64,000 nt of DNA from Candidatus Latescibacterota bacterium (GCA_965215195.1 CBDCDC010000002.1:4320001-4384000); one strand, 5' to 3'; counted from the stretch's first letter, positions 13,859 through 62,907 are shown. Numbers and translations: made by a program. The notes: generated from the sequence alone by a model not told the origin.

Positions 13859-14227
13859 GTGCGCCGCCGCGCGTTTGAGAAGCTGGTGGAAAGGGCCCTT
13901 CAGCACCTGCCAGAAGAGTTTCGTCAAGTGCTGGACAACCTAGCCATCGTCGTGGAGGACTGGCCCGACCCCGCCTTGGTCGAGGAGGTAACCGGCGATC
14001 CAGAGGAAGTGCTCTACGGGCTTTTCACGGGCACACCCCTGCCCGAGCGCCGCCTCGAAGACAGCGGAGACCTGCCGCCGGTAATCGCGCTCTATCAGGG
14101 GCCTTTGGAGGAGGACTTCCCCGAGCGGGGCGAGCTGGCGCGGGAGGTGGAAACGACCTTGGTACACGAATTGGCGCACTTTATGGGCTTTGACGAAGAC
14201 GCAGTTAGAAAGTACGGCTATGAATAG
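13859..14227 (+). CDS. Zincin-like metallopeptidase family protein
   Basis: LYGLFTG and HELAHFMG motifs. Confidence 0.85.
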   Translation: MRRRAFEKLVERALQHLPEEFRQVLDNLAIVVEDWPDPALVEEVTGDPEEVLYGLFTGTPLPERRLEDSGDLPPVIALYQGPLEEDFPERGELAREVETTLVHELAHFMGFDEDAVRKYGYE

Positions 14228-15167
14228 CACCGACTTGCAAAAGGCCATAGACGAGGGCGAGTTAGACGCCTTGGCGACCCTGCTGCGCCAGCACCCGCAC
14301 CTAATGCACCAGCGCGTCGAATGCGCAAACGGGCAGAGCTATACCCCCTTGCAATACGCCGACCGCATCGCCGCTAGCTTGGACGCCATGCGCCTGTTGG
14401 TCGAATTAGGTGCCGATTTGCGCGAATTGAACGGAGTGCTCTTTGGGTGTTGTGAGAACCATAATTTAGACCACATGCAGCGCCTGCTAAAGCTGGGCGT
14501 CCACCCGGACGACGCATACAATGAAGGCTGGGACTGCCGAGTCCTCTACGGGCTTTTGCAGACGTACCACCGCTCGCCCCCCGCCCATCTGCACGCCTGC
14601 GTCGAAGCGCTCATCAAAGCGGGAGCCGCCTTTGAGGACGGGCCGACGATGGATATCCACCGCGGCCGCCTCGACCAACTGGAGCAGTGCCTCGACCGCT
14701 GTCCCGACTTGGTGGAGACGCGCTTCTGGCTCGACTACGGCGACCATCTCACCCTGCGGGGTGCCACCCTCCTGCACGTGGCGGTCGAATATCACGAGCT
14801 AGAGGCCGTGCGCCTGCTGCTGAGGCGCGGTGCCGATTTGAATGCCCGCGCCGAAATCGGCCGCAACGGCGTGGGCGGCCAGACGCCCCTCTTTCACGCC
14901 ATTGGTGCCAACCAAGGAACGGGCTGGGAAACCTTCGAGTACCTGTTGGACAAGGGGGCGGACTTGACGGCCAAGGCACGCATCCAGCGCAACCCGGCGG
15001 CTGACGACAAAGTGATGGACTGCATTCACAAGGGGCAGGATCACTTTTTTCCCGAGGTCGAGGAACTCACGCCGCTGGGCTACGCCCGGCGCTGCGAATT
15101 CGGCCCGGCGTGGCGCTCCACACCGCGCGAAGTGGCCCGGCTGCGGGCACTGCATGCCCCGATGTAA
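14220..15167 (+). CDS. Ankyrin repeat protein
   Basis: TPLQYA, TLLHVA...LLLRRGADLNA and GQTPLFHA repeats. Confidence 0.85.
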   Translation: MNSTDLQKAIDEGELDALATLLRQHPHLMHQRVECANGQSYTPLQYADRIAASLDAMRLLVELGADLRELNGVLFGCCENHNLDHMQRLLKLGVHPDDAYNEGWDCRVLYGLLQTYHRSPPAHLHACVEALIKAGAAFEDGPTMDIHRGRLDQLEQCLDRCPDLVETRFWLDYGDHLTLRGATLLHVAVEYHELEAVRLLLRRGADLNARAEIGRNGVGGQTPLFHAIGANQGTGWETFEYLLDKGADLTAKARIQRNPAADDKVMDCIHKGQDHFFPEVEELTPLGYARRCEFGPAWRSTPREVARLRALHAPM

Positions 15168-23889: not shown

Positions 23890-24804
23890 ATGCCTGTTCC
23901 AAATAAGAAAGAACTGTGTCGGCCAATTCTCGAAATAGCGGATGGCGCACAAGAAGACGTAGTCCCCAAGCAGTATATCAGGGAGAAGGTTATCGAACGT
24001 TTCTCACTGACGAATGATGATATACTAGAGAAGACCTCGTCGGGAGGAGGAACGAGGTTGGAAATTCGCGTTTCTTGGGCACTCTTCGAGTTAAAAAAAG
24101 CTGGTTTTTTGCAGTCTCCTTCGCGTGGGCACTTCCAAATCACCCCGCAGGGGAAAGAACTGCTCGCAACGGGCGATGATCTTCTTTCATTGCGATGGAA
24201 AGACTTAGATGCAGTGCGGCAGGGTGGAGGTGAGGCAGACGCGCCTGACACCGCTGTCAACGATGACGTCGGCAGCGACTCTGAGGATAGTACGCCCGAT
24301 GAGCAAATTGCGGCGCTTTATCGGGAATTGAGTGACAGACTTGCCGACGAGCTATTGGAGCGGGTGAAAAGGGTATCGCCCGCCGATTTTGAACGATTGG
24401 TAGTCCGTTTGCTCGAGAAAATGGGCTATGGCCAAGGTCAGACCGTTGGAGGCAGCGGCGATGGCGGCATAGACGGCATCATCGATCAGGATGCCTTGGG
24501 GCTTGAGAAGGTGTACATCCAAGCGAAACGCTGGCAAAATCCGGTTGGCGAACCTGAGATTCGCAACTTCTCCGGTAGCCTTGACGGAGAGGGAGCAAAC
24601 AAGGGCGTATTTATCACGTCATCAACTTTCAGTTCGCCGGCTCGAGAAAGAGCGAAAGCCATCTCGCAGGGCAATAAGTTTATCCGGTTAATAGACGGTG
24701 AGGAGCTGGCCCGTCTGATGATAAATCACGGCGTCGGCGTGGTCTCCGAAATCACATACGACGTAAAAAAGTTGGACGAAAACTACTTTGCCGAGGATTT
24801 GTAA
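23890..24804 (+). CDS. mrr: Mrr restriction endonuclease (type IV)
   Basis: N-terminal wHTH (RVSWA..LKKAG); FERLV..LL..MGY, GDGGIDG, IQAKRW and LIDGEELA motifs. Confidence 0.92.
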   Translation: MPVPNKKELCRPILEIADGAQEDVVPKQYIREKVIERFSLTNDDILEKTSSGGGTRLEIRVSWALFELKKAGFLQSPSRGHFQITPQGKELLATGDDLLSLRWKDLDAVRQGGGEADAPDTAVNDDVGSDSEDSTPDEQIAALYRELSDRLADELLERVKRVSPADFERLVVRLLEKMGYGQGQTVGGSGDGGIDGIIDQDALGLEKVYIQAKRWQNPVGEPEIRNFSGSLDGEGANKGVFITSSTFSSPARERAKAISQGNKFIRLIDGEELARLMINHGVGVVSEITYDVKKLDENYFAEDL

Positions 24805-24843
24805 CGGCGAAGCAGTAGAGTTTTCACAGAAATTATAGCATCC

Positions 24844-25962
24844 ATGCAAACCACCGCTAAGCTGATATGCGGCCCTGCCCAGTCCATGGCGGGAATCGCG
24901 GATGAATCGGTTGATTTGATCGTCACCTCGCCGCCCTATCCGATGGTAGAAATGTGGGATGAGATTTTCGCGCTCCAAGACGGCCGCATCCGGGAGCAAC
25001 TGTCGCACGGCAACGGACGGGCCGCCTTCGCGCTCATGCACGAGCTGCTCGATGCAGTGTGGATGCAGTGCAGCCGCGTCATGAAGCCGGGGGCCATTGC
25101 CTGCGTCAACATTGGCGACGCCACCCGAACCTTGGATGGCGACTTCCAGTTATACTCCAATCACTCCCGCATCCTCAGCAGCTTCATAGGCCAAGGTTTT
25201 GCGGCCTTGCCCGATATACTCTGGCGCAAACAGACCAACGCACCCAACAAATTTATGGGGTCTGGGATGCTGCCCGTAGGGGCGTATGTGACCTACGAGC
25301 ACGAGTACATTCTCGTGGTTAGAAAAGGGCGGCGGCGAACCTTCACAACGGCTGCCGAGAAAGCCAACCGCCGAGCGAGCGCCTTCTTCTGGGAGGAGCG
25401 CAACGTCTGGTTCTCAGACGTGTGGTTCGATGTAAAGGGAACTTCGCAAGGGCTCGTTGATGCGCCGACCCGCGAGCGCAATGCGGCCTTCCCGTTTGAA
25501 TTGGCCTACCGGCTCGTCTGCATGTTTTCCGTCAAAGAAGACTTGGTGCTCGATCCGTTTGCGGGCACTGGAACGACACTCGCAGCCGCCCTAACAGCGG
25601 GAAGAAACTCGGTCGGCGTGGAGATTGACGAGACATTGGTGCCGGTCGCGCAAAACCAGCTTCGCTCCACACCCCCAGCCGCCAACGAGTACAACCACGC
25701 CCGGCTAGCTCGGCACGCAGAGTGGGCGGCCGTGCGCAAGACAGAGAGCGGTCCGTTGAAATACGCGAACCGCCATTACGGATTTCCGGTAATGACGGCT
25801 CAGGAACAAGACCTGTTGCTAAACGACGTAACGGGAATTGCCGGCGAGGCCGACGGCATGGCACTGGTGGCTCAGTACAGCGCGGAACCGAATGATTGCT
25901 TTGCAGCGCATCCGCGCAAAAGCAAGGCCGCCGCTCAAACGCTGCTGCCGCTAAGCTCTTAA
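24844..25962 (+). CDS. Beta-class amino-DNA methyltransferase (probably N4-cytosine)
   Basis: TSPPY near the N-terminus; LDPFAGTGTT near the C-terminus. Confidence 0.9.
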   Translation: MQTTAKLICGPAQSMAGIADESVDLIVTSPPYPMVEMWDEIFALQDGRIREQLSHGNGRAAFALMHELLDAVWMQCSRVMKPGAIACVNIGDATRTLDGDFQLYSNHSRILSSFIGQGFAALPDILWRKQTNAPNKFMGSGMLPVGAYVTYEHEYILVVRKGRRRTFTTAAEKANRRASAFFWEERNVWFSDVWFDVKGTSQGLVDAPTRERNAAFPFELAYRLVCMFSVKEDLVLDPFAGTGTTLAAALTAGRNSVGVEIDETLVPVAQNQLRSTPPAANEYNHARLARHAEWAAVRKTESGPLKYANRHYGFPVMTAQEQDLLLNDVTGIAGEADGMALVAQYSAEPNDCFAAHPRKSKAAAQTLLPLSS

Positions 25963-34500: not shown

Positions 34501-36255
34501 CTATCCAAAAGAGAGTTGCATCTGTTGATCATCTGGTCGAGTGCGAATAGATTGAGAGGAATTTTCAGTCATTCCTTTATCGCCAATGGCACTACACACT
34601 TCTCCCCAGTCGATGAAGTATTCGTCAAAATAGCGAACTGGATATTTACTGAATCTAATAATGTCCTCTCTATCGGGCCTGCGTCCCAGTTTGATAGCAA
34701 TCTCCTTGACTTCGATCTGTAGTGTTTTTTTAGGCACTTCGTACTTCTGTTTTTGTAGTCTTGCAACTCTACTGTTCTTTGCTTTTGGAGTAGTACCATT
34801 TTTTGCAAACGGATCCCTCCCTTTTTGCAGGTCTAAATGTCTCTGTTCGGCAATTGCATGATATTTAGCCGACAGTTCAATTCCAATGAATTTTCTTCCA
34901 AGCATCTCTGATGTTAAAGTCGTTGTACCTGCGCCGTTAAAAGGATCTAAAACGAGATCTCCTTCTTTGGTAAAGGTATGGATAAGTCGCTTCATCAGTG
35001 ATGGAGGTAGTTGACATGGATGATCAACTCTTTTTGAATTGTGCTTTAGCCTATGGATATCCCACCACAAATTTCCAATCGGCTGTCGGTCTGTAATTTT
35101 GTTTATATTTCTTTTTTTGATACAAGAGGTTCTAACGCAATACCATGGTTTGAGGCTCATGAAGTTTTGGGGAGTTCGCCAACTAGCTTTCTTTTCGTGA
35201 TTGGCAATTTCAATTGGCCGACCTTTACTAAAGCAAATTATTCCATAATGTGCCGGCATAATTTTTCTGATGGGTAAGCTCAATCCCTCCCAAACTATCC
35301 AATCTTGGTAATATAAAATGCTTCTCGCGAACGAAAAATGCCTGACGATCCAGAGAGGAATATTTATAATTGCAAGAGTCCGACTGGGTTTCAAAACTCT
35401 AGCTGATTCAGCTATCCATTGATCACACCATGAAAAGTAATTACTAATATCTTGGGCATCATTCCAGTTATCATATTTCTTTTTTATATTATATGGAGGA
35501 TCAGCAAAAATAAAATCTACGGAATTTTCAGGGATAGTTTTGAGGATATCTAAACAATCTCCGTTGAGTAAACGACTCCTGCCGGGGTTATTAATTATTC
35601 CGTTTGAAGAGCGGAATTTTCTCTTTTTGGAGAATGTAAGAAAGTTCCTGACATCGCAGTAAATAAGTTGGCTATAAGGTTCGTGCCCAAAGAGATCCGC
35701 TAGTCTTTCCAGAATAGCTCTTGGTGCTGTATCATTATCATAAGAAATATCGCGCCAAATATCAGACATAAGAGTCCCATAGGGGCTATAAATATGTTTC
35801 TTACCTCCGTAGTCCTTTGTTGTTTTGTTGCAGGCAGGACAGTACGTATATTCTATTTGAGTCTTGTTATGCTTCAAAGAACCCTTGTAACGGGTAAAAA
35901 CTAAGAGAGCAATATGGCCATCTGGCAAGGCCCCCAATCGCAGTATCTCTTGTTTGCGTTTGACAGCAATCCAAAGTTTGAAATAGACGCGGTTCTGAAG
36001 TTTTTCTATTATATAGCAAGCTATGTGAGGATTTGTCAAAAAACAAATTGTACTTTCTGCGGGCAATTTTTCAAGAAAATCATCGAAACCTTGCTTAAGA
36101 AATTCCACAGAAACTTTATCGTCGAGACCAATTTCTGTAGTCAAATGGAAAAGCCATACATCCGGCCGTAGTGACTTTGGCGATAATTTTTGAAAATTTT
36201 CAAATGTCCTTATTGATATATCTAAGGACTTGCAGTTTTCACTCCGGTGAGCCAT
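34501..36255 (-). CDS. Beta-class N6-adenine DNA methyltransferase with N- and C-terminal extensions
   Basis: FADPPY, HPCQLP and LDPFNGAGTT motifs; AT-rich DNA. Confidence 0.9.
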   Translation of the reverse strand: MAHRSENCKSLDISIRTFENFQKLSPKSLRPDVWLFHLTTEIGLDDKVSVEFLKQGFDDFLEKLPAESTICFLTNPHIACYIIEKLQNRVYFKLWIAVKRKQEILRLGALPDGHIALLVFTRYKGSLKHNKTQIEYTYCPACNKTTKDYGGKKHIYSPYGTLMSDIWRDISYDNDTAPRAILERLADLFGHEPYSQLIYCDVRNFLTFSKKRKFRSSNGIINNPGRSRLLNGDCLDILKTIPENSVDFIFADPPYNIKKKYDNWNDAQDISNYFSWCDQWIAESARVLKPSRTLAIINIPLWIVRHFSFARSILYYQDWIVWEGLSLPIRKIMPAHYGIICFSKGRPIEIANHEKKASWRTPQNFMSLKPWYCVRTSCIKKRNINKITDRQPIGNLWWDIHRLKHNSKRVDHPCQLPPSLMKRLIHTFTKEGDLVLDPFNGAGTTTLTSEMLGRKFIGIELSAKYHAIAEQRHLDLQKGRDPFAKNGTTPKAKNSRVARLQKQKYEVPKKTLQIEVKEIAIKLGRRPDREDIIRFSKYPVRYFDEYFIDWGEVCSAIGDKGMTENSSQSIRTRPDDQQMQLSFG

Positions 36256-36256
36256 T

Positions 36257-37291
36257 TTAGTTACCTCCTTCCATAGTTTCTGCTAGACGTCTAATATCGC
36301 CGTCACTAAGATTGATGATACAGTCGCTGTACTTGATTAAGTTCTTCACAAAAGAGCGGCGTTCAAAATTGCCAGCACCATCAACTACATACGCAATTTT
36401 ATGCCCTTTTTCACGAAGAAGCCTTTGTCTATCAGGAGCGGATTGAGCTTTCCTTTCTACTACACTGTTTGTAGTAAATTGAAAACTCACTTCAATACCC
36501 CAATAATTACCATTAGGACTTTTACCGACGATGTCAAATTTTGTATCTGTTCTACCTTCGGTCTGGCTGATGCTTGGAATCGTGGTTTGTGAGAAATCCC
36601 AACTCGGGAGATATTGAGCCAACCGCTCTTTTACATAATTCTGAGCGAGGTAACCCATCCTGTTGGACGTTGCACCTCCAGTAATTCGACTAACTAAGAT
36701 ATATCTTTCTTTAATATATTTTTCCAACCTTGGTTTGTCGCCAATCATTGAACCAATAATACATTTGTCTTCGATTTCCTTTGGTAAAAAATCATTCGTT
36801 GACAAACCACCAAATAAAATCAGGGTACTTACGTCAACAATAGAGTCTGTAAGGTCAAAACGTTGCTGGATTCCCTCTCCGTCAAGCCCTAAGCTGGGAT
36901 TACTCCACCTTCTGCCACAAAAAAGAGATTTCATCTCGTAATCGTAATTTTTGCCACGAAAGGTGAATTTGAAATTCTCGTACTTAAATTTTTCTGGAAG
37001 CTCTGCTGCAAAGCGTTTTAAGTTTTCTCCGCTGATATCGGATAAAATGCAAAGATGTTTTAAAAAAAGATTTGGATAGAGATCTTCAACAAAACCTAAA
37101 ATCTTAGTCCAATCATAAGGAGCTTTATATCCAAGTTGGAGCATACTTATAAAACTATCTTGCGTTTTAAGAAGCAGAGGGATAATACTAGAATTCTTCT
37201 CTTGCTTGGCGATTTCAGATGGCCAATAGATTACAGCATTTTCCTTCAGTTCTTCTACTGTTTCAGGATTAGGCATTACCAGATTCTCCAT
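36257..37291 (-). CDS. Type II restriction endonuclease (PD-(D/E)xK-like)
   Basis: FD...IEVSFQ.TTNS..ERK and VVDGAGN motifs; directly upstream of the methyltransferase; AT-rich. Confidence 0.75.
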   Translation of the reverse strand: MENLVMPNPETVEELKENAVIYWPSEIAKQEKNSSIIPLLLKTQDSFISMLQLGYKAPYDWTKILGFVEDLYPNLFLKHLCILSDISGENLKRFAAELPEKFKYENFKFTFRGKNYDYEMKSLFCGRRWSNPSLGLDGEGIQQRFDLTDSIVDVSTLILFGGLSTNDFLPKEIEDKCIIGSMIGDKPRLEKYIKERYILVSRITGGATSNRMGYLAQNYVKERLAQYLPSWDFSQTTIPSISQTEGRTDTKFDIVGKSPNGNYWGIEVSFQFTTNSVVERKAQSAPDRQRLLREKGHKIAYVVDGAGNFERRSFVKNLIKYSDCIINLSDGDIRRLAETMEGGN

Positions 37292-41104: not shown

Positions 41105-41671
41105 TGTTTCTAATAATATAGTAGAATGAGCCGCGCCTCAGTGGGGGAGGGACGCGACTGGCGGACAATGGGAGCGATTAAAATGAAGGAGAAAACAGAA
41201 GCATAGGAGGAGAGCAGAAGGGGTAGCCACTCTCCTTGGTGCAACTGCTAGTTCAAGAAATTCTCCGTTTGCTTAATATAGTGAACATAAATGCAGTTGT
41301 CAATCAAATGCAGGTGTGGGCAGAAGCGGTGATTTAGCGACTTTGCTGTATCTTTTGGGAACGGTAGTGTTACAGAGGTGATACACTTTGGCGTATCGAC
41401 TGGTTGGAGCGGAAGCTGTGGCGACAAAAAATCTGGATTGGCTAACCTACCTAATTTCAAGGAGTTAGCGAATACCAACGACGGCTCAGTCTATCTGGTG
41501 TGCTTCTTGGCACGTTTTTCGCTTTTGTTCCCGCTGAGGCCGAGACCTCAGTCGTGCTTCAAACCATCTTCAACTAGAGGTATATTTCAATTGCTCGCAT
41601 CTATAAGAGAAAGATTGGCATCAAGGTTATTGTGGTGGAGCAGTGGCCTCAGAAGATCCTCGGAAACCAAT

Positions 41672-44059
41672 ATGTTGGACCGTAGCACATTATCTATTCT
41701 AGTCCTATTCCATGGATGTAGCTCCGTTCATACTAGACGAGCTTGTGAGATCGCCCGACAATTACGACACCGAGGCTACGAGGTTCGGCTAGCAGGAGAT
41801 GGGCCTTATGCGGAGCAATTTTCCCAAAAGGGAGAAGAAATATGCAGTGTTGAAACATTGCCTCTAGATATTCACCGAGACCAGACTGAGCTATTGGACT
41901 ATAGGTCGTGCGATACTGAATGGATCGATTCTTGCGTAAAATCCGAACGGTCTTTGATTGAGGAGTACAAGCCCGATCTAATTATACACTCCTTGAAACC
42001 AACGGCTTCAGTTGCAGCATATTTGGAAGGTGTTGACGAAGTTGAAATAATCCAAGGATACGATCAACCAGGCGGTCATCTTCCTCTTCAGACCCTATCT
42101 GTACTACCATCGCGAGATACGTTTGCAGAATACTTAAAAAGCAAAGTCTGCGAAATCAAAAAAAGAAATAAGTACTTCCTAATCGCCGATATACCCGATC
42201 TATATCCTACACTAGAGTTTAGTGCTAGTGGATTCCATTATATAGGACCTCTTTTGCCAGCCATGAGAAAAAAAAGAGACGGACGGAAGGTGATTCGCAA
42301 ACGGGGTACACCATTTCCTACCGTCTATATAAAGGATCCCAAAAATCTCCTAAGAGAAGATATACTTAGACAAGTTGAGTCCGGGACAAAGATGCCTTAT
42401 CGCTTACTAGTAGAATCTACCAGAGGAGTAAAATGGTCTAAAAGCCGTGTAGAGTTTGTCGACGAAAGATATAGAGAGCCACCATGGGAAAGAATACGTA
42501 TAATAGTTGGAGATTTAGATATAGAGACTCTATACAGTGCTTTATCTCATGGAGTTTTGCCTGTCGGTATAGCTACTACTTTAGACCAAGAGCTCCATCT
42601 CGATAGACTCGAAGCAGTTAATCTGGGTTTCAAGATAGATCCAGATATGTTTAGCTATCATATTGTTACACAAGCAGTAGGAAAAATACTAGATACTTGG
42701 GATAAAATGGAGGTTCGATTAGAACACGTTGTTAAGATCTTGGAAAGATGGTATACAAAAGATGTCGTCGCTGACTGGGTAGATAATTATTTTGTGAACC
42801 GGCATACGGTACTCCGTTACGATCCCAGATTTCTAGTAAGCGAAAACGAATTCTTACAGCAACTCGACGGCACTACTCCCTCCACGCTATCAATTGAGTC
42901 ACTACGTAAAATGCTACAGCAAGGTATTCAAAGAGGAATACCTCACTGGCGACAGGGCAATCAGTACTTCTTCGACATAATAGATTCTTGGAACTGGCTT
43001 TACGAAAAGGAAGATCGATTTTTCGAGGCTGAATACAGAGCCTGTGATCAAAGGCGGAGTACCTTCTTCGATATAGATGAAATGGGCAACATACGTTCAA
43101 AATCTCATATTCAACGCTATAAAGTAACCTACTCTTACGACATACACCTCACTGAAAAATCGGATCAACAGTTAAGAGCTTTTATACCATATCCTTTAGA
43201 GACAGAAGAACAAAAGGCAGTTAATCTAATTAGCTGTTTCCCAGAGGATATGAGAGACTATTTACGCGGCAAGTTTGGATTCTTCTACGCGTACCCTTTC
43301 ACTGCAAATTCGGCAAATTTTTCATATACTTGCGAACTTGAAGTCAGTAAGTACAATGCTAAAGGTAGGGGTGAGTACATCCTCCCAGAGTGGGAGAGAT
43401 CGAGATATTTGTACACCGGCGAAGGCTTGGCAAAACTTCCAGAGTTAGATCAAATGCTCTCTGAGATACTCGAAGCATCTGCGTCCTGTGATAAAAAAGA
43501 ACTAGCTTGGGCCTTCTACAGCAAACTAGTCAGAACCAAAAAATTCAGAAAGACTAAACCACCTGCGATGGGTCTAGTTGATAGTTCAGCTACCTTACTA
43601 AATAGTAGCGGTGGTAATTGTATTCACTTTGCCAGAACCTTTATATCTCTGTGTCGAATGGTAGGTATTCCTGCTCGGGAGAGATGTGGAACCTTGTTAG
43701 GATACCCAATTTCTGAAAAGGTGTACGAATACAGCAGTATAAACGAGCCTATAATAGGCCACACATGGGCCGAAATCTACCTAGAAGAAGCAGGCTGGAT
43801 ACCCGTCGAATTCCTCAGTGTGGCTATCGGCGAAGTTTCTATAAACGAATACAATATCAAGGATCCTAAATTAAAAAAATATATAAAGCAAAATAATCGC
43901 TCTTTTGAATCTTATTATTTTGGCCATTTAGATAACCAACGACTCATGTTTTCCAATTCTGTGAAGACACTACCTCTATGCTTAACAAAAGGTGTGGATG
44001 AATGGGAACCTCTTCCAAACATACAATGCCAATATCGTATGAGAGTGGAGTGCATATAA
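41672..44059 (+). CDS. Fusion of GT-B (GT1-like) glycosyltransferase and transglutaminase-like domain
   Basis: N-terminal H..R...IARQLRHRGYEV, KPDLII, YIGP and LDQ; C-terminal GGNCIHFA..F..LCR..GIPAR, GHTWAEIY and GWIPVE. Start moved to ATG 41672. Confidence 0.8.
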   Translation: MLDRSTLSILVLFHGCSSVHTRRACEIARQLRHRGYEVRLAGDGPYAEQFSQKGEEICSVETLPLDIHRDQTELLDYRSCDTEWIDSCVKSERSLIEEYKPDLIIHSLKPTASVAAYLEGVDEVEIIQGYDQPGGHLPLQTLSVLPSRDTFAEYLKSKVCEIKKRNKYFLIADIPDLYPTLEFSASGFHYIGPLLPAMRKKRDGRKVIRKRGTPFPTVYIKDPKNLLREDILRQVESGTKMPYRLLVESTRGVKWSKSRVEFVDERYREPPWERIRIIVGDLDIETLYSALSHGVLPVGIATTLDQELHLDRLEAVNLGFKIDPDMFSYHIVTQAVGKILDTWDKMEVRLEHVVKILERWYTKDVVADWVDNYFVNRHTVLRYDPRFLVSENEFLQQLDGTTPSTLSIESLRKMLQQGIQRGIPHWRQGNQYFFDIIDSWNWLYEKEDRFFEAEYRACDQRRSTFFDIDEMGNIRSKSHIQRYKVTYSYDIHLTEKSDQQLRAFIPYPLETEEQKAVNLISCFPEDMRDYLRGKFGFFYAYPFTANSANFSYTCELEVSKYNAKGRGEYILPEWERSRYLYTGEGLAKLPELDQMLSEILEASASCDKKELAWAFYSKLVRTKKFRKTKPPAMGLVDSSATLLNSSGGNCIHFARTFISLCRMVGIPARERCGTLLGYPISEKVYEYSSINEPIIGHTWAEIYLEEAGWIPVEFLSVAIGEVSINEYNIKDPKLKKYIKQNNRSFESYYFGHLDNQRLMFSNSVKTLPLCLTKGVDEWEPLPNIQCQYRMRVECI

Positions 44060-46572
44060 TGGACATAAGTGTAATTGTAGCCACATATAATCAGAAAGAA
44101 CGTCTCCGTCTCGTGTTGAGAGGTTTAGAAAGTCAGAGTATTCCAAACGATCACTTTGAAATACTAGTGGTTGACGACGGTTCAACAGACGGTACTGGAG
44201 CAATGCTGAAATCACTGAAGATGCAGAATCTCGAAGTTGAATCTTTTGAAACGAACCAAGGCCGCTGCCGAGCACGGAACAAAGGAATTGAACGGGCACA
44301 TGGTTCGTTAGTCGTTTTTTTAGATGGAGATGCATTACCGGCTCCGAATCTACTCCAGTGCTACTTAGAAGCCTATAAAGAGAATGGTCAGAAATCAGTA
44401 TTTTGTGGGTACCAGTATGTCCTTCCCAATCTAGAGTATTTCCAAGATCCTCAGACAGGTTCTCTCTTGGATATCTCGCTGCCTTATTCACTGCGTCGGC
44501 ACTTGGCTCTACATCGAGATAAGATGATTGTCACAGAGGATATGGTATGCAATGAGTTCGATAGTATTATTGAAAAAGCAGTAGAAGGAGGCTATCCGTT
44601 TGAAGCAGTTCGTACTATGCAGCGAGAATCTCTCGATCTTTACGAAACTGTCGCAGAACCGGCACTAGGCTGGATTGGATTATACCCTCACAATGTGGCC
44701 ATACCGTTAAAGCTACTAGAAAAAGTAGGGAAATTCGATGATACCATACCTTTTTGTGAAGGATGGGAACTTGGCTATCGCCTAAAGGCGGCAGGTGGAC
44801 AATTTATCAGTGTCCAAGCCTCTTCTTACCACCTATACCATCATCATAATTTCTCCGATCCTGAGAAAGCAAAAGCCGAAAGAGTGAAGCGATATGCTGC
44901 GGTTGAGTACATAGCCTGCAAACATAGCGACCCCTTGGTGCGTCTGATCCACTTCTGGTGGGCACATCTGTGGCCTAATCCTTTTCTTCCAGAGGAGTCA
45001 GTTATAGACAGTCTGATTGAATTTGACCATATCTACCGAACTATTTCTGAAACAGATAGAAAAGAATACCAAGAGATCCTAGATGCACTTCCACAGCTTG
45101 ACCTAGATACCGAGCTTCCTGCTCATTGCAAATTTAGCTCTGCTGAAAGTAATGTATCCGAACTAGTTGACCAGCAAGATGGTCCTGAAGAATGGGAAAT
45201 CATTTTAGCCTCTGCTGACGAGCACTGGCAAAACGGTCGTCTAGAATCCGCCTTATCCCAAATCGAACTAGCAAAAGAAGTTAACCGTCTTCGGGGTGGT
45301 ACAACTATAGGATTAGCTAACATACTGATCTCCCAAGGCAAAGTTTACGAGCTGAAAGGCGAATTAGACAAGGCAAATCAATGTTATGATGAGGCCATAT
45401 CAATTTTTTCACAAACTGAGGATGATGAGAGTACAAGGAAGCTAGCTGTAGGATATACCTGCAAAGGGTTTATCACACAGCTACAAGGAAATCTCACTGA
45501 GGCTGCTGATTTTTATATAAAAGCACAGAGCCTTAACAAAAAAATAAATTGTCGAGAAGATTATGCCTTAGTTACTAGCAACTTGGGTACTGTGCATTTA
45601 CTAAAAGGCGACTTGAATTCAGCAGAGAAACTTTACGAGGAATCTATAGCTATTTACAAAGAAATTGGAGACTCCGAAGGAATTGCTAGCCAGTACAATT
45701 CACTTGCAAATTTAAGAAAAATTCAAGGCCGTATTTACGAAGCACGTACTCTACTGGAACAGGCTATTGGTATAGATAAAAAGATGGATAGAAAAGAGGG
45801 ATTGGCATTGCATTATGGATTATTTTCCTCGATACACCTTCTAATGGGAAATATGGAAGAAGCACTAGAGTGCGGCAAAGCTGCTTTAGAAGCTAATCAA
45901 AGCTTGGCGGATGAAAAGGGAAAAGCGTACTCATATAGAATACTAGCGAATGTGCATTTCTATCGTGGGGATTTTCCTCTGGCAGAATCTTATCTGCATC
46001 ATTCTATAAGCCTATTTGAACGTATAGGTATGTCATCCGATGTGATTGAGTGTTATTTATCTCTTGGAAAATTGTACGCTCATAGTAAAAAATTTGATAA
46101 AGCCAAGGAATTCCTATGCAATTACCTACGCCTTGCTCCAGACTCGCCTAACCAGCAAACTATTGCTGCAGCCCGAGCTACTTTAAGTCTCGTATATATC
46201 CAATGCGGACAATATGAAGACGCGTACCAAGAGCAGAAGACTGCACTGGGGATATACGAAGCCGAGGACGATGAAAAGGGCACCGCCTACGGATTTGCTA
46301 GTCTAGGCGAGATACATCAGCTTAGAGGACAATGGATTGAAGCAGAATCTTGTTATAGTAGAGCTCTGTCTATATGCAAGAAGATAGGTGACGAACTCGG
46401 ACAAGGGCTTGCCTATATGGGGATGGGAGATGTGGCTGCCCAAAAAGAGTCAAAAGCAAGAGCTGTCGCTTTGTGGACGATGGCATCAAAAATTTTCGCC
46501 GGAATGAATATGTATAACTACGCTGACCGAGTCGAAGAAAAGATAAAGACTGTTCAAGGATCAGAACTATAG
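44059..46572 (+). CDS. GT2 glycosyltransferase with long C-terminal TPR array
   Basis: SVIVATYN, VVDDGSTD, ARNKG and FLDGD motifs; repeated NLG/A...Y..A TPRs; TAATG coupling to the upstream gene. Confidence 0.88.
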   Translation: MDISVIVATYNQKERLRLVLRGLESQSIPNDHFEILVVDDGSTDGTGAMLKSLKMQNLEVESFETNQGRCRARNKGIERAHGSLVVFLDGDALPAPNLLQCYLEAYKENGQKSVFCGYQYVLPNLEYFQDPQTGSLLDISLPYSLRRHLALHRDKMIVTEDMVCNEFDSIIEKAVEGGYPFEAVRTMQRESLDLYETVAEPALGWIGLYPHNVAIPLKLLEKVGKFDDTIPFCEGWELGYRLKAAGGQFISVQASSYHLYHHHNFSDPEKAKAERVKRYAAVEYIACKHSDPLVRLIHFWWAHLWPNPFLPEESVIDSLIEFDHIYRTISETDRKEYQEILDALPQLDLDTELPAHCKFSSAESNVSELVDQQDGPEEWEIILASADEHWQNGRLESALSQIELAKEVNRLRGGTTIGLANILISQGKVYELKGELDKANQCYDEAISIFSQTEDDESTRKLAVGYTCKGFITQLQGNLTEAADFYIKAQSLNKKINCREDYALVTSNLGTVHLLKGDLNSAEKLYEESIAIYKEIGDSEGIASQYNSLANLRKIQGRIYEARTLLEQAIGIDKKMDRKEGLALHYGLFSSIHLLMGNMEEALECGKAALEANQSLADEKGKAYSYRILANVHFYRGDFPLAESYLHHSISLFERIGMSSDVIECYLSLGKLYAHSKKFDKAKEFLCNYLRLAPDSPNQQTIAAARATLSLVYIQCGQYEDAYQEQKTALGIYEAEDDEKGTAYGFASLGEIHQLRGQWIEAESCYSRALSICKKIGDELGQGLAYMGMGDVAAQKESKARAVALWTMASKIFAGMNMYNYADRVEEKIKTVQGSEL

Positions 46573-46627
46573 TGTAATATCATAAGGCGATACCTTCGCA
46601 AAAGGCGAGTAATAATTCCTATCAAGT

Positions 46628-47173
46628 ATGACACTTTGTAAAAGTAAATTAACAATTGGAGCGGCTATAATATTAGTCATTTTTTTTGCTGCTACCTTGC
46701 AATTAATCGCCGTGTTCGTTACGAATGAAAGCATATACCGTAACGCGATGGCGTGGTTGAAAGGTGCGGAATACGAAGGAACGGAAGGAGTCGTTCTACA
46801 GACACGTAAGATGAATTGTGGTCCTGCATCTCTTAAAATGGTCTTGGATAGCCTAGGTATAGACCAAGAACTTACAGATATTGAAGACATGATTAGATTG
46901 GACGAGACAGGTTCTTCTTTATTCGACTTGATGAAATACGCCGAAAGTCAAGGAGTACATGCTGAAGCTTGGAGGCTAAATATAGATGACCTAGAGAGCA
47001 AACCACTTCCTGTGGTAGTCTTTATTGAGGATGATCACTTTGCTGTGCTGGACCAGATCAACGAACACGGTGAGGTCATCTTGCGAGATCCAGCCATCGG
47101 CAGGCTCAGAATTAGGAAATGGGCATTCAACCGTATATGGAAAGGAGAGACTTTGATATTGACAAAAAAATAA
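46628..47173 (+). CDS. Stand-alone C39 cysteine peptidase with N-terminal TM anchor
   Basis: LQ....NCGPASL, HFAVL, DPA.G and F...WKG motifs; no ABC domains. Confidence 0.88.
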   Translation: MTLCKSKLTIGAAIILVIFFAATLQLIAVFVTNESIYRNAMAWLKGAEYEGTEGVVLQTRKMNCGPASLKMVLDSLGIDQELTDIEDMIRLDETGSSLFDLMKYAESQGVHAEAWRLNIDDLESKPLPVVVFIEDDHFAVLDQINEHGEVILRDPAIGRLRIRKWAFNRIWKGETLILTKK

Positions 47174-47175
47174 AA

Positions 47176-47579
47176 CATTCACCATGTGGAGGTAGGGGTT
47201 GTCATCTTCTCTTTTAAGAAAGGAGAACATCATGACCAAACTTATCAACACGAAAGGTGTAACAGCTCTGGCGACAGCCTTGGGCTTATGCGCCTACAGT
47301 ATCGCACCTAGCAACAGTGCCATCATCTCCAAGCCTATTACGCCTTCTGAGGCTCGGGACATCAAGGGTGGCATTCTCCCTTGGGCACTGGTAGGTTGGG
47401 CCATAGCAGCTGACGTCGCACTCACAGTTGGTGCGATGTCCCTTTACGGGAATCTAGAGACTTCAAGGCAACAACGAGAAGGATCTTACGCCCGCAACCC
47501 GTAAGAAGACTGAAAAACAACAAACAAAACCTGTAAGAAGCTAACCTAGGTGAAACCCGCAACCTCTACATGGTGAATG
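47176..47579. repeat. About 29-nt imperfect inverted repeats (47176-47204 and 47551-47579) flanking the precursor gene
   Basis: CATTCACCATGTGGAGGT versus reverse complement CATTCACCATGTAGAGGT (17/18 match), extending imperfectly. Confidence 0.85.
47232..47504 (+). CDS. Double-glycine RiPP/bacteriocin-like precursor with an additional signal-like N-terminus (90 aa)
   Basis: AGGAG SD; ITPSEARDIKGG leader motif; hydrophobic core; lies next to the C39 peptidase. Confidence 0.8.
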   Translation: MTKLINTKGVTALATALGLCAYSIAPSNSAIISKPITPSEARDIKGGILPWALVGWAIAADVALTVGAMSLYGNLETSRQQREGSYARNP

Positions 47580-47582
47580 GAC

Positions 47583-47620
47583 GAGCTACCAGTCTTTTCA
47601 TCGAGACTGGTAGCTCAAAA
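47583..47620. terminator. Perfect 13-bp hairpin (terminator or mRNA stabiliser)
   Basis: GAGCTACCAGTCT...AGACTGGTAGCTC followed by AAAA. Confidence 0.65.
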
Positions 47621-47821
47621 TCTTCGCTAACTAAGAGAAGGACTCTACGACTTTGAATGCCTTAGTGTTTCTTTTAGGGATGATTCAGCCTATCGCCTAT
47701 AAGGCGAGGGTCGCTTTAGTTGGGCTGAATGGTCTTTTGCATGTTGAGCAATTTTCGGTGTCATGCTATGGACTATGAGGTTTTACCACACTATCTTAAG
47801 GTATTGGTTCGGACTTGAGGG

Positions 47822-48661
47822 GTGTACTTCAAGCATTTAGAAGAGGCAGGTGTACTCATGAAAAAAATCCGTACAATGGACCAACACATTTATCCCTTAT
47901 TTACCAGAAAGTTTGAAAATATACGATGTAGGACATTTTCTACCTTTCTACTAGCTATTTTTATGTTCTTCTTTTTTCGCTATACTGTCGATACTATACT
48001 TAATCTATTCGCTTTGAGCGACTACCTTCTCATATTATTATGTACTATTCCTTATGTTTTACTTATTTTAATTGTCGTGGCATTCTCTAAGATAGAGAAA
48101 CAGGATCTGACCATCCAAACCTTGGGATTATCCCCTCAAATTCCCAGAAGATCAAAAAGATTCGTTTTGACGTTTATTTTTTTATCGTTAGTATCCGGAG
48201 TAGGTATATTGGTCTTTTTCCTTTACATGAAGCTCCAAGGGATTGATATCCACTTAATACACCCCAACCCTACTCTAATACCTTGGACTGAGGAAGCCGA
48301 CTGGGATGAAAAATTTCGTACTATATTTCTCCTTATTATTCCATATTCAGTTCGTGCTTTATTGATTGCCCCTGTTATAGAGGAGGCATATTTTACAGGC
48401 CTGATTTTCCCTGCTCTAAGGAATCGATTGGGGTTCGTTCTCGGCTTCACTATTACCGCTTTTCTCTTCAGCTATCACCATTACTCTCCGTTTTTAGAAG
48501 GACATCTAAGGGAATTTATCATTATGTTTATGTCACAAAGTCTTTCATTTTTTTTCTATCAGGGTACGCGCTCTCTTTATCCTTCTATAATATACCATTC
48601 TTTACGCAATATGTCAGTTTTGGCTATTGAACTCTCAGCCTTTATCCCAACTCAGTCCTAA
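47822..48661 (+). CDS. CPBP/Abi (CAAX-like) intramembrane protease, possible immunity factor
   Basis: APVIEE..F.G, F...HH and SIIYHSLRN motifs; start uncertain. Confidence 0.85.
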   Translation: MYFKHLEEAGVLMKKIRTMDQHIYPLFTRKFENIRCRTFSTFLLAIFMFFFFRYTVDTILNLFALSDYLLILLCTIPYVLLILIVVAFSKIEKQDLTIQTLGLSPQIPRRSKRFVLTFIFLSLVSGVGILVFFLYMKLQGIDIHLIHPNPTLIPWTEEADWDEKFRTIFLLIIPYSVRALLIAPVIEEAYFTGLIFPALRNRLGFVLGFTITAFLFSYHHYSPFLEGHLREFIIMFMSQSLSFFFYQGTRSLYPSIIYHSLRNMSVLAIELSAFIPTQS

Positions 48662-48786: not shown

Positions 48787-49488
48787 GTGGAAGCCGCACT
48801 CCAGACTGAAATCGGCCTCGTCGGCCGCATGATCCGGATCTTCTACGCACCCAGCAAGACCTTTGAATCCTTCGCTCATAAGCACAGCACTGCCGACTGG
48901 CTTATGCCCGCCATTCTGAGCACCGTAGTTGCCACAATTGCTGCCGTGCTCGTCATGCCCGTCACGACTGAGTTCAATCAGGAGGCCATACAACAGCGTA
49001 TTCAGGGTATGTCTGCTCAACAGCGAGAGGCAGTAGAGCAATCCCAAATCGAGGGTATGATACAGGCCATTACGCTGATCTCCACACCTATTGTGCTTTT
49101 CATTTTTCTTTTTCTTTTTGCCGCGTCTTGCCTACTGATGGGCAAATTACTCGGCGGCCTACTCTCCTACGGCCAAGTCCTAACCATCGTAGCCTATGCG
49201 GGGTTGATCGCTATTCCCCAACATATTGTCAAGACATTGCTAATATTGGCCAAAAAGACACCGATGGTGCAAATGGGCTTGGGGGTGTTCCTCTCCGAAG
49301 AGGCCCTACAAAGCTTCAGTGGTCGCTTATTGTCTCTCATTGATCCCTTTGTCGTTTGGAGCGTTGTGATTACTGGTCTCGGTCTGTCCATTGTCGGACA
49401 GTTCGATCGCAGCAAAGCCTACACTGGGATTGGTGTCATAATGATTGTTTGGTTTTCCTTCGCTGCTGCCCTAGGTAGTATCGGCTAG
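48787..49488 (+). CDS. YIP1-family membrane protein
   Basis: IFYAPSKTF and IDPFVVW motifs; about five TM segments; AGGAGG SD. Confidence 0.8.
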   Translation: MEAALQTEIGLVGRMIRIFYAPSKTFESFAHKHSTADWLMPAILSTVVATIAAVLVMPVTTEFNQEAIQQRIQGMSAQQREAVEQSQIEGMIQAITLISTPIVLFIFLFLFAASCLLMGKLLGGLLSYGQVLTIVAYAGLIAIPQHIVKTLLILAKKTPMVQMGLGVFLSEEALQSFSGRLLSLIDPFVVWSVVITGLGLSIVGQFDRSKAYTGIGVIMIVWFSFAAALGSIG

Positions 49489-61971: not shown

Positions 61972-62907
61972 TTATTGTGGTTCGTCAGGGTATCGTAGGA
62001 GTTGGTCGGGTTGCGATACTTGTGCGAAGTAACTTGCTAGCACCAGATTGCAAGTAGTCTCAATGTGATGGAATATAGCCTTTGTGTCCGGTTCAGTCGC
62101 TTGATTACGAACCATGTCACATACCTGTTTCTGTGAGTCAATCGCCTCGGAAATCCTATGCCTATTGCGCCCAACAAAAATTTCGGCTTTAGCTTGTGGT
62201 GACAAGCTGGTGAGAAGTTGGCCAAGCAGAAAAAATGTATCATCAACGGCCTCTCCTACCTTCACTATTGAACTTGCTGGAGCAATTTGGAAGTAGTTGC
62301 CTTGCGCCATTTCGTCGGAAAAGTAATCACGCAACTCGATACACTTTAATTGAAGGTCTCTGACAATTCTTTGGAAACGTGCGTTCAATGGTCCCCTGTC
62401 CTCGTCAGTGGACCTCCCACCGGGTGTACCTTGGTATGTATCCGCAAGATCCGGCATAATTCCGTCAAGATCAGATCGAGAGGTATCGAATTTTGCGGCA
62501 ATATCTTCAAGCCGTTTTTGGGCATCGAAACTGAAGAGACGCGAAACATGATATGAAAGGCGTCGAGAAGTTACTTTTGCAATCATGATCCCTACCACTG
62601 CAAGTCCTATGAGGACTTCTATGCAGATGAGAACCTTCGAGAATCCCATCGGGTGCATGTCACCGTACCCCAACGAGGAGATCGTGACGATACTGAAGTA
62701 TATGCCTGTGGGGATGTCTGTGGGAAATGCAATATCAGGAAGCGGCTTAAGATCTCGCCCAATACCATGCCCTATTGGGGTGAGTAGGGTATAAGCAATC
62801 CCAAAGAGGATGACCGTCGCGGCGAAAAATACCATATACCGGAGCAAGCTGACGTCCTCTACCAGAAAGACGAGTACCCTTTTGATACTTCTCTTGATTT
62901 TAGGCAA
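61972..62907 (-). CDS. 2TM potassium-channel family protein with helical cytoplasmic tail
   Basis: YFSIVTISSLGYGDMHP pore signature. Confidence 0.85.
   Translation of the reverse strand: MPKIKRSIKRVLVFLVEDVSLLRYMVFFAATVILFGIAYTLLTPIGHGIGRDLKPLPDIAFPTDIPTGIYFSIVTISSLGYGDMHPMGFSKVLICIEVLIGLAVVGIMIAKVTSRRLSYHVSRLFSFDAQKRLEDIAAKFDTSRSDLDGIMPDLADTYQGTPGGRSTDEDRGPLNARFQRIVRDLQLKCIELRDYFSDEMAQGNYFQIAPASSIVKVGEAVDDTFFLLGQLLTSLSPQAKAEIFVGRNRHRISEAIDSQKQVCDMVRNQATEPDTKAIFHHIETTCNLVLASYFAQVSQPDQLLRYPDEPQ

Follow-up and report, generated by a model that had tools for sequence, protein, structure and literature searches.

An AT-rich five-gene island of a Latescibacterota chromosome combines two large glycosyltransferase genes with a double-glycine precursor peptide, a stand-alone C39 peptidase and a CPBP protease

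The stretch of DNA analyzed here, a 64-kb piece of a Candidatus Latescibacterota chromosome with a guanine-plus-cytosine (GC) content of 57%, is referred to below as the window and is syntenic with Latescibacterota chromosomes assembled from metagenomes. It contains an island of approximately 7.6 kb at 37–42% GC, located between parE, which ends at position 41104, and a gene for a Yip1/YknW-like protein, which starts at 48787. Five co-oriented genes make up the island: g1, encoding a fusion of a GT-B glycosyltransferase (GT) with a transglutaminase-like domain; g2, encoding a GT2 glycosyltransferase joined to tetratricopeptide repeats (TPR); a stand-alone C39 peptidase gene; a double-glycine precursor gene; and a gene for a CPBP intramembrane protease. 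parC and parE lie upstream, and their products are 92–93% (ParC) and 95% (ParE) identical to those of the related loci L002 and L003; a TonB-dependent receptor is encoded downstream.

The compositional boundary of the island is sharp. GC content is 0.414 in g1, 0.424 in g2, 0.416 in the C39 gene and 0.365 in the CPBP gene, against 0.588 in parE, 0.582 in the TonB receptor gene and 0.58–0.60 in the flanks overall; GC at third codon positions (GC3) is 0.36–0.41 in the same four genes and 0.58–0.68 in the flanking ones. The gene of the Yip1/YknW-family membrane protein (48787..49488, +), which adjoins the CPBP gene, has a host-like GC3 of 0.585 and probably belongs to the host backbone, outside the island, which therefore consists of exactly five genes. 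Neighboring reading frames are closely coupled, with the stop codon of g1 overlapping the start of g2 (TAATG) and, in the homologous locus L004, the stop codon of g2 overlapping the start of the C39 gene (ATGA). The 55 nt that separate g2 from the C39 gene in the window showed no significant structure and no structured terminator (z = 0.12). The island is horizontally acquired, and its five genes are read as a single operon. Scans of the region for promoter-like and terminator-like signals stayed at the level of shuffled sequence (17 vs. 17.7 expected and 8 vs. 6.8, respectively); in the window, a tRNA scan found none, and no Rfam family reached its gathering score. No convincing direct repeats surround the island, all repeat families being two-copy, 14–37 nt long and 72–94% identical.

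The first gene, g1 (41591..44059, +), encodes 822 residues: a GT-B region at approximately 30–400, a helical/β-sandwich middle part and a transglutaminase-like core at approximately 600–822. The latter matched Transglut_core (PF01841) in Pfam with E = 1.8e-14, and an alignment of homologues revealed invariant Cys677 and His724, with an acidic residue near position 740. Foldseek comparison of the AlphaFold model (predicted local distance difference test, pLDDT, 79.8) placed roughly 400 residues on GT1-family natural-product enzymes, namely SpnP, OleD, EryCIII, GtfA/GtfD, CalG and YjiC (E~1e-13; template-modeling score to the target 0.55–0.71), and TgpA was also matched in the PDB (E = 2.6e-4). 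Judged from the model, the N-terminal half is a GT-B fold of the GT1 family. Pfam GT-B models (Glyco_trans_4_4) hit the window protein below threshold only, and a paralogue in locus L008 reaches the gathering score for EryCIII-like_C and UDPGT. His41, His47 and an LDQE motif are invariant in the family; the glycine-rich donor loop is divergent. An N-terminal helix (residues 5–24) is conserved, and hydropathy analysis predicted no hydrophobic or transmembrane (TM) segment in either g1 or g2. The start codon of g1 is most likely TTG 41591, 81 nt upstream of ATG 41672, since the 27 intervening codons are conserved in homologues (37–96% identity) and the homologue P0001, 96% identical to g1, begins at the TTG position. 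NCBIfam and Pfam hold no model for g1 as a whole; of 5.8 billion protein clusters, 14 belong to this family. ESM Atlas yielded nothing usable, and tblastn against 72,556 plasmids returned no match.

The second gene, g2 (44059..46572, +), encodes 837 residues, with a GT2 domain of the GT-A fold at approximately 1–260, a linker, and about 11 TPR repeats at 376–833. Pfam assigned Glycos_transf_2 (E = 3.5e-26) and TPR_12 (E = 7e-46), and the GT2 motifs DDGSTDG and DGD are intact. In the structural model (pLDDT 79.2), the TPR superhelix is similar to those with which OGT, SPY and LGN bind peptides, and the GT2 domain resembles the chondroitin polymerase K4CP. Among PDB sequences, SunS (7msp, 7msn) was matched with E = 0.009–0.013 at about 18 bits, behind 34 generic GT2 sequences and compared with 54 bits for a generic chondroitin synthase; by sequence, the GT2 domain is thus not SunS-like. 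PADLOC was also consulted for a known defense system; it matched g2 by generic TPR hits only, and this assignment was rejected.

The third gene (46628..47173, +) encodes a stand-alone C39 cysteine peptidase of 181 residues, consisting of a basic N-terminus, a TM helix at approximately 8–31 and the catalytic domain. It matched PF03412 with E = 7.7e-28 and aligns to the LahT-type double-glycine protease 6mpz. Gln58, Cys64, His137 and Asp154 are invariant in all 13 aligned stand-alone homologues, each of which also starts with basic residues (up to RRKK) ahead of a TM helix. Because the basic stretch precedes the helix, the positive-inside rule would place the catalytic domain outside the cytoplasm; as far as hydropathy and charge indicate, the enzyme is probably membrane-anchored and faces the periplasm. 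The stand-alone family comprises 18 clusters.

The precursor gene (47232..47504, +), preceded by an AAGGAG ribosome-binding site, encodes the 90-residue peptide MTKLINTKGVTALATALGLCAYSIAPSNSAIISKPITPSEARDIKGGILPWALVGWAIAADVALTVGAMSLYGNLETSRQQREGSYARNP. Its leader (residues 1–47) has a basic n-region, a hydrophobic segment at 9–25 and a double-glycine consensus at 36–47 ending in KGG. The 43-residue core (48–90) consists of a hydrophobic helix with Asp61 and a polar Gln/Ser/Thr/Tyr tail, and it is free of cysteine, the single Cys of the peptide being located in the leader. Double-glycine leaders display a pattern of hydrophobic and acidic positions before the GG; here, Gly46-Gly47 is preceded by Ile at -4, Glu at -8 and Ile at -12, and by sequence the leader fits this pattern. 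All 12 aligned sequences keep the GG, and one remote relative has GA. The leader pattern is quoted, in part, by PMC10885120. Averaged over all pairs of the 12 sequences, identity reaches 0.85 in the leader and 0.59 in the core, and in L004 the identity of the hydrophobic core drops to 23%. This combination of conserved leader and variable core is a signature of secreted peptides and bacteriocins. Conservation of the leader extends over residues 1–30 (84%), and C39 recognition needs the proximal part only.

Hydropathy analysis of the precursor revealed two hydrophobic segments, and the first 25–30 residues appear signal-anchor-like. A cleaved Sec signal peptide was considered and rejected: the sequence after the hydrophobic segment (P-S/N-N-S/T) offers no small-x-small signal-peptidase site conserved across relatives, and an uncleaved anchor is therefore preferred. 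Remote precursors retain the basic/hydrophobic N-terminus, an S-[KRE]-P-I-T...E-A-Q...G-G/A motif and a hydrophobic helix with a central Asp. In one of them, P0041 (121 residues), the leader-proximal motif, the GG site and the hydrophobic segment with its Asp occur as two tandem units, implying that cleavage gives two products. The family is small (8 clusters): a profile search of 1.84 billion representatives recovered only 5 proteins, and NCBIfam and Pfam contain no model for it. ESM Atlas leads all remained below 0.9, the best being unnamed at 0.87, and a cluster labeled 'Bacteriocin_IIc 11%' at 0.78 is a weak lead only. The window holds one precursor copy, the search having covered copies of the cluster's own precursor.

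The fifth gene (47858..48661, +) encodes a multi-pass CPBP/Rce1-like intramembrane glutamic protease of 267 residues (Pfam, E = 7e-12), with EExxFxG and HxxxN motifs present in all four full-length orthologues. GTG 47822 is also open; the start is most likely ATG 47858, since L002 carries an upstream stop codon. Placing a CPBP gene next to that of a GG peptide is the classic arrangement for immunity, and by analogy the protein is a candidate self-protection factor or second processing enzyme.

Two conserved non-coding elements accompany the precursor gene. An inverted repeat of 32 nt, 81% complementary, brackets the reading frame with an upstream arm at 47176..47207 (+) and a downstream arm at 47548..47579 (+), and is directly followed by a GC-rich 14-bp hairpin (47583..47616, +; -34.1 kcal/mol, z = -6.6, with none of 200 shuffled sequences reaching this stability). 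Across all five loci of this type the arm cores do not vary, and this holds for L004 too, whose proteins are 46–58% identical by tblastn; RNAalifold predicted a stem of about 29 bp closing the whole precursor frame in each of the five sequences. Few compensatory changes are seen in this long-range stem, since its arms barely vary; in the 14-bp hairpin, L001 and L004 carry double changes that preserve pairing. The hairpin is likely a transcript-end, attenuator or stability element, and together the two structures most likely determine how abundant or stable the precursor transcript is. An invertible-DNA element (inverton) is less likely and was set aside, because the island has no recombinase and an RNA stem is predicted in five of five sequences.

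These results largely agree with the sequence-only reading of the locus at the level of genes. It had described AT-rich DNA with five co-oriented genes, which the GC profile and the Pfam and NCBIfam matches confirm; a GT-B/transglutaminase fusion, for which Transglut_core and the AlphaFold/Foldseek comparison speak; a translationally coupled GT2-TPR protein, as reflected in the TAATG overlap and the domain assignments; and a C39 peptidase, a GG-motif precursor with a 43-residue Cys-free core and a CPBP protease, all of which were recovered with their characteristic residues. Its start for g1, ATG 41672, was corrected, being internal to the conserved frame. The proposed lack of an exporter was likewise sustained: no ABC (ATP-binding cassette) or PCAT (peptidase-containing ABC transporter) domain, nor any domain of a membrane fusion protein, TolC or a thiol-disulfide oxidoreductase, was detected in the five cluster proteins, the Yip1 protein and 38 other large window open reading frames (ORFs).

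The distribution of the system was mapped by scanning 185,579 species genomes for the pattern, which yielded 15 loci with a g1 relative. In four of them (L001–L004, with g1 56–84% identical), all of those that share the island's clade in the g1 tree, the five genes occur in the same order, at 46–89% protein identity. The identities fall in parallel across the four loci, being 84/79/79/56% for g1, 83/88/89/57% for g2, 76/85/88/58% for C39 and 73/82/81/52% for the precursor. The neighborhood of L004 differs, with an EamA transporter and DUF386 and without parE/parC. The GT2 and TPR parts are fused in all five peptide-type loci; in the other clades they are split in eight loci, and the TPR part is missing in two. 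Among metagenomic homologues, the 'longest contig' values coincide between g1, C39 and precursor clusters (9171, 67304, 8912, 1129472, 9214 and 5653), a hint that these clusters may be co-located. Several independent lines identify the five genes as a co-transferred, co-transcribed and co-diverging unit. The system is genuine and rare, and has been seen only in Latescibacterota-like genomes so far. As to naming, L001 is titled Poribacteria, yet its parE is 91% identical to that of the window; L004 is titled Planctomycetota, and its g1 lies at zero branch length from P0007, which one source names Latescibacterota.

Considering these features, we propose the following model. The basic and hydrophobic leader segment, together with the core helix, would insert the precursor into the inner membrane as a helical hairpin, presenting residues 26–47, including the cleavage site, to the periplasm. 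There, the N-terminally tethered C39 peptidase would cut after Gly46-Gly47 and release a free 43-residue Cys-free peptide, and the CPBP protease may, by analogy, protect the producer or trim the remnants. The cytoplasmic g1 and g2 proteins could add one or more sugars to the parts of the peptide exposed to the cytosol, i.e., the tail, or to the peptide before insertion, and the transglutaminase-like domain of g1 could possibly carry out Gln transamidation on the precursor; an isopeptide linkage is pure conjecture. The long-range stem and hairpin around the precursor frame would provide a stable or abundant transcript. A hydrophobic, signal-anchor-like leader combined with a membrane-anchored, probably periplasm-facing C39 peptidase would account for the missing ABC exporter.

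That the enzymes modify the precursor by glycosylation or transamidation is plausible, although we place it slightly below an even chance. It is favored by the coupling of g1 to g2 and, in L004, of g2 to the C39 gene, by the co-inheritance of the genes, by the restriction of the GT2-TPR fusion to the peptide-linked clade, by the likeness of the TPR part to peptide-binding superhelices, by the conserved leader residues 1–30 and by the small ORF that precedes g1 in a second g1 clade (L012 and L015, see below). The complete model, in which ribosomal membrane peptides undergo maturation at both sides of the inner membrane, with a Gln/Ser/Thr-rich cytoplasmic tail decorated by g1/g2 (with sugar, and possibly Gln-linked with loss of NH3) and periplasmic C39 cleavage without an exporter, would make the family a separate class of modified ribosomal peptides; it is more tentative still and, taken as a whole, unlikely. 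Modeling g2 (alignment A3) and the precursor (alignment A2) as a complex scored 0.00 in both runs, which says nothing either way about binding.

Several observations weigh against modification of the peptide. In 11 of the 15 loci, the g1/GT2 pair occurs without C39, precursor and CPBP genes, as determined by tblastn and by profile hidden Markov models on six-frame ORFs, in which off-target best hits had E = 0.046 or worse; four of these 11 loci are cut short, L006 inside g1, and L005, L009 and L015 soon after the TPR gene. Both locus types are found in the same genome in three cases (L003 with L007, L002 with L010, L004 with L015). Three clades make up the g1 tree, two of them formed by these 11 loci, and the context differs from clade to clade; the peptide label changes once, on a branch with 100/100 support; because the peptide-linked loci all lie on one side of that branch, the association arose once, and its five instances are kin rather than independent. 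The structural neighbors of g1 glycosylate small molecules, and the solved relatives of the g2 GT2 domain make polysaccharides or teichoic acids. Remote precursors have differing tails, with the SYARNP tail missing in L004, P0041, P0042 and P0044, and share no Ser, Thr or Tyr position. Finally, the orientation of the peptidase and the precursor is read from hydropathy and charge only, and under the proposed topology most of the peptide would reside in the membrane or periplasm, beyond the reach of cytoplasmic enzymes. The sequence-only reading had proposed a new glycosylated peptide pathway and had named GT homologues found mostly without C39/precursor neighbors as a result that would speak against it. 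Part of that proposal stands, namely the five-gene unit, present elsewhere in unchanged order in four of the 15 loci and attributable to no known class; the link of the enzymes to the peptide is weakened by the 11 loci where the GT pair is peptide-free and by the single origin of the association.

The same distribution could mean that two modules travel together, with C39, precursor and CPBP forming an unmodified class II-like bacteriocin with its immunity protein, and the GT pair serving another acceptor, e.g., an exported envelope protein or lipid, and contributing at most an envelope-based self-protection. We regard this as a serious possibility, if a somewhat improbable one. The peptide-free GT pairs reside among ABC-2 permeases, DUF1573, NEW3, outer-membrane efflux protein and ABC ATPase genes or beside a histidine kinase, the core peptide looks like a plain hydrophobic helix with a polar tail, and the nearest solved relatives of the GT domains are not peptide glycosyltransferases, all of which, like the single origin of the peptide association, would fit two separate modules. 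Independent modules would, however, hardly be expected to show the g2–C39 coupling of L004, the retention of all five genes over 56–96% identity and in two genomic neighborhoods, a GT2-TPR fusion specific to the peptide clade, or an N-terminal leader conserved beyond the need of C39. Moreover, a glycan pathway requires sugar-nucleotide, flippase and polymerase genes, and none are present.

Alternatively, the precursor could be a non-antimicrobial two-helix membrane protein whose periplasmic loop is cut by C39 and whose fragments pass to CPBP, acting as a membrane-embedded signal, anchor or regulator of the GT/transglutaminase machinery or as a very small pilin- or amyloid-like subunit. In its mature form the peptide is a membrane helix carrying a buried Asp that is conserved, P0041 bears two tandem leader-core units, and sub-threshold similarity links C39 to the fiber-system peptidases FapD and FilB and CPBP to the sorting proteases MrtS and MrtJ. 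These NCBIfam scores are nevertheless far below their cut-offs (FapD 42.8 vs. 330, FilB 35.3 vs. 475, MrtS 28.3 vs. 130, MrtJ 20.2 vs. 75), the scanned window ORFs include no fiber secretion, usher or platform genes, and the variable core beneath a conserved leader is at odds with such a role, which we consider improbable. The idea that the genes lie together by chance, or that the AT-rich DNA has given rise to spurious ORFs, for which only the chance-level promoter- and terminator-like matches would speak, is refuted by the strong domain matches, the gene order kept in four other loci and the conserved non-coding elements, and has a negligible likelihood.

Should the enzymes act on the peptide, the five-gene system would add a class of glycosylated, possibly transamidated, Cys-free peptides, and a GT1-transglutaminase fusion enzyme would join the toolbox of peptides that are made on ribosomes and modified post-translationally (RiPPs). 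Even otherwise, the island represents a double-glycine system from an uncultured phylum in which the PCAT exporter is replaced by a hydrophobic leader and a tethered, probably periplasmic C39 peptidase, an exporter-free layout that genome mining for PCATs or known RiPP enzymes would overlook. In our view, the main interest of the system lies in this membrane-anchored C39 design, in the unusual enzyme fusions and in the possible new modification.

The peptide-free relatives of g1 have settings of their own. In L005–L010, L013 and L014 (e.g., L008, 5937–18570), a paralogous g1-GT2(-TPR) trio belongs to a conserved operon with two ABC-2 permeases and a DUF1573 secreted protein upstream, and a coiled-coil/NEW3 membrane protein, an outer-membrane efflux protein and an ABC ATPase downstream; an extracytoplasmic function (ECF) sigma/anti-sigma pair is encoded nearby. 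This arrangement suggests that the operon handles an exported, enzyme-modified product. In L013 (10049–12435), the g1 paralogue is divided into two overlapping ORFs (355 and 459 residues), by a frameshift or an assembly error. Other peptide-free loci have a histidine kinase and a sigma-54 activator nearby. In this histidine-kinase-linked clade, a conserved ORF of 79–89 codons precedes g1 by 12–15 nt (L012, 9665–9904; L015, 141–410); the two products are 33% identical (E = 6e-8), have a basic and hydrophobic N-terminus, and may be the substrate peptides of that module.

Elsewhere in the window, just past parC and at a distance of 4 kb from the peptide island, there is a second AT-rich island (34501–37291, -; GC 0.38–0.39). 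Its products are a type II restriction enzyme that is BanI-like (PF24447, E = 6e-106) and an N6/N4 DNA methylase. A Mrr-type restriction endonuclease with another N6/N4 methylase is encoded at 23890–25962 (+), where GC dips locally to 0.53, and a third low-GC patch (0.47) at 61972–62907 (-) carries an Ion_trans_2 channel gene. The window also encodes an ankyrin-repeat protein (14190–15167, +); such proteins are common in sponge-symbiont genomes.

A full-text search of the literature found no description of this gene set, and comparison with known systems supports the view of the sequence-only reading that it fits no defined RiPP class; the glycocin features tested are lacking, and so is the exporter of class II bacteriocins. 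Lasso-peptide clusters share with g1 a transglutaminase-fold Cys/His/acid domain in a ribosomal-peptide setting, the B proteins being described, in part of PMC10885120, as transglutaminase-like C96 leader peptidases. Unlike in lasso clusters, no Asn-synthetase-like cyclase or RiPP recognition element domain turned up in the scanned ORFs, with PF01841 the only such match, on g1; the g1 domain is joined to a glycosyltransferase of the GT1 family, and leader removal has a C39 peptidase of its own. OGT/SPINDLY-type enzymes likewise join a long TPR superhelix to a glycosyltransferase, and their TPR part is the top structural match of g2; they are, however, GT41 enzymes of the GT-B fold with an N-terminal TPR, whereas in g2 the GT2 (GT-A) domain comes first and the TPR part is C-terminal.

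FapD, which belongs to the Fap amyloid system of Pseudomonas and is presented in part of PMC5557850 as a stand-alone C39 protease of the periplasm, resembles the island's peptidase in being detached from an ABC transporter and acting in the periplasm. Apart from the low score against its NCBIfam model (NF058616), the window differs in having no FapF, FapC or FapE, and the island has a GG-leader substrate next door. Neither score nor partner genes place the cluster among the Fap, x-CTERM or lasso systems. Glycocins (sublancin/SunS, glycocin F, thurandacin) also place a GG-type leader peptide beside a GT2 enzyme with a helical, TPR-like C-terminal part. A section of PMC12457901 defines them by nested disulfides in the core. 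In all four glycocin traits tested the cluster differs: its core has neither Cys nor disulfides, PCAT and thiol-disulfide oxidoreductase are absent, and its GT2 domain is only remotely similar to SunS. Glycocins, in turn, do not have the second, GT1-fold enzyme fused to a transglutaminase-like domain that is present here.

The closest resemblance is to class II double-glycine bacteriocins and microcins with CPBP (Abi) immunity, which share the GG leader pattern (hydrophobic at -4/-12, acidic at -8), a complete C39 domain, a hydrophobic Cys-free helical core and a CPBP gene just downstream. Their C39 domain comes with an ABC (PCAT) exporter, whereas in the island the peptidase stands alone as a small membrane-anchored, probably periplasmic protein, the 47-residue leader has a conserved hydrophobic N-terminus, and two large glycosyltransferase genes are part of the operon. 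Save for the exporter, the cluster would appear, by its leader, C39 peptidase and CPBP protein, to work most like a class II double-glycine bacteriocin locus.

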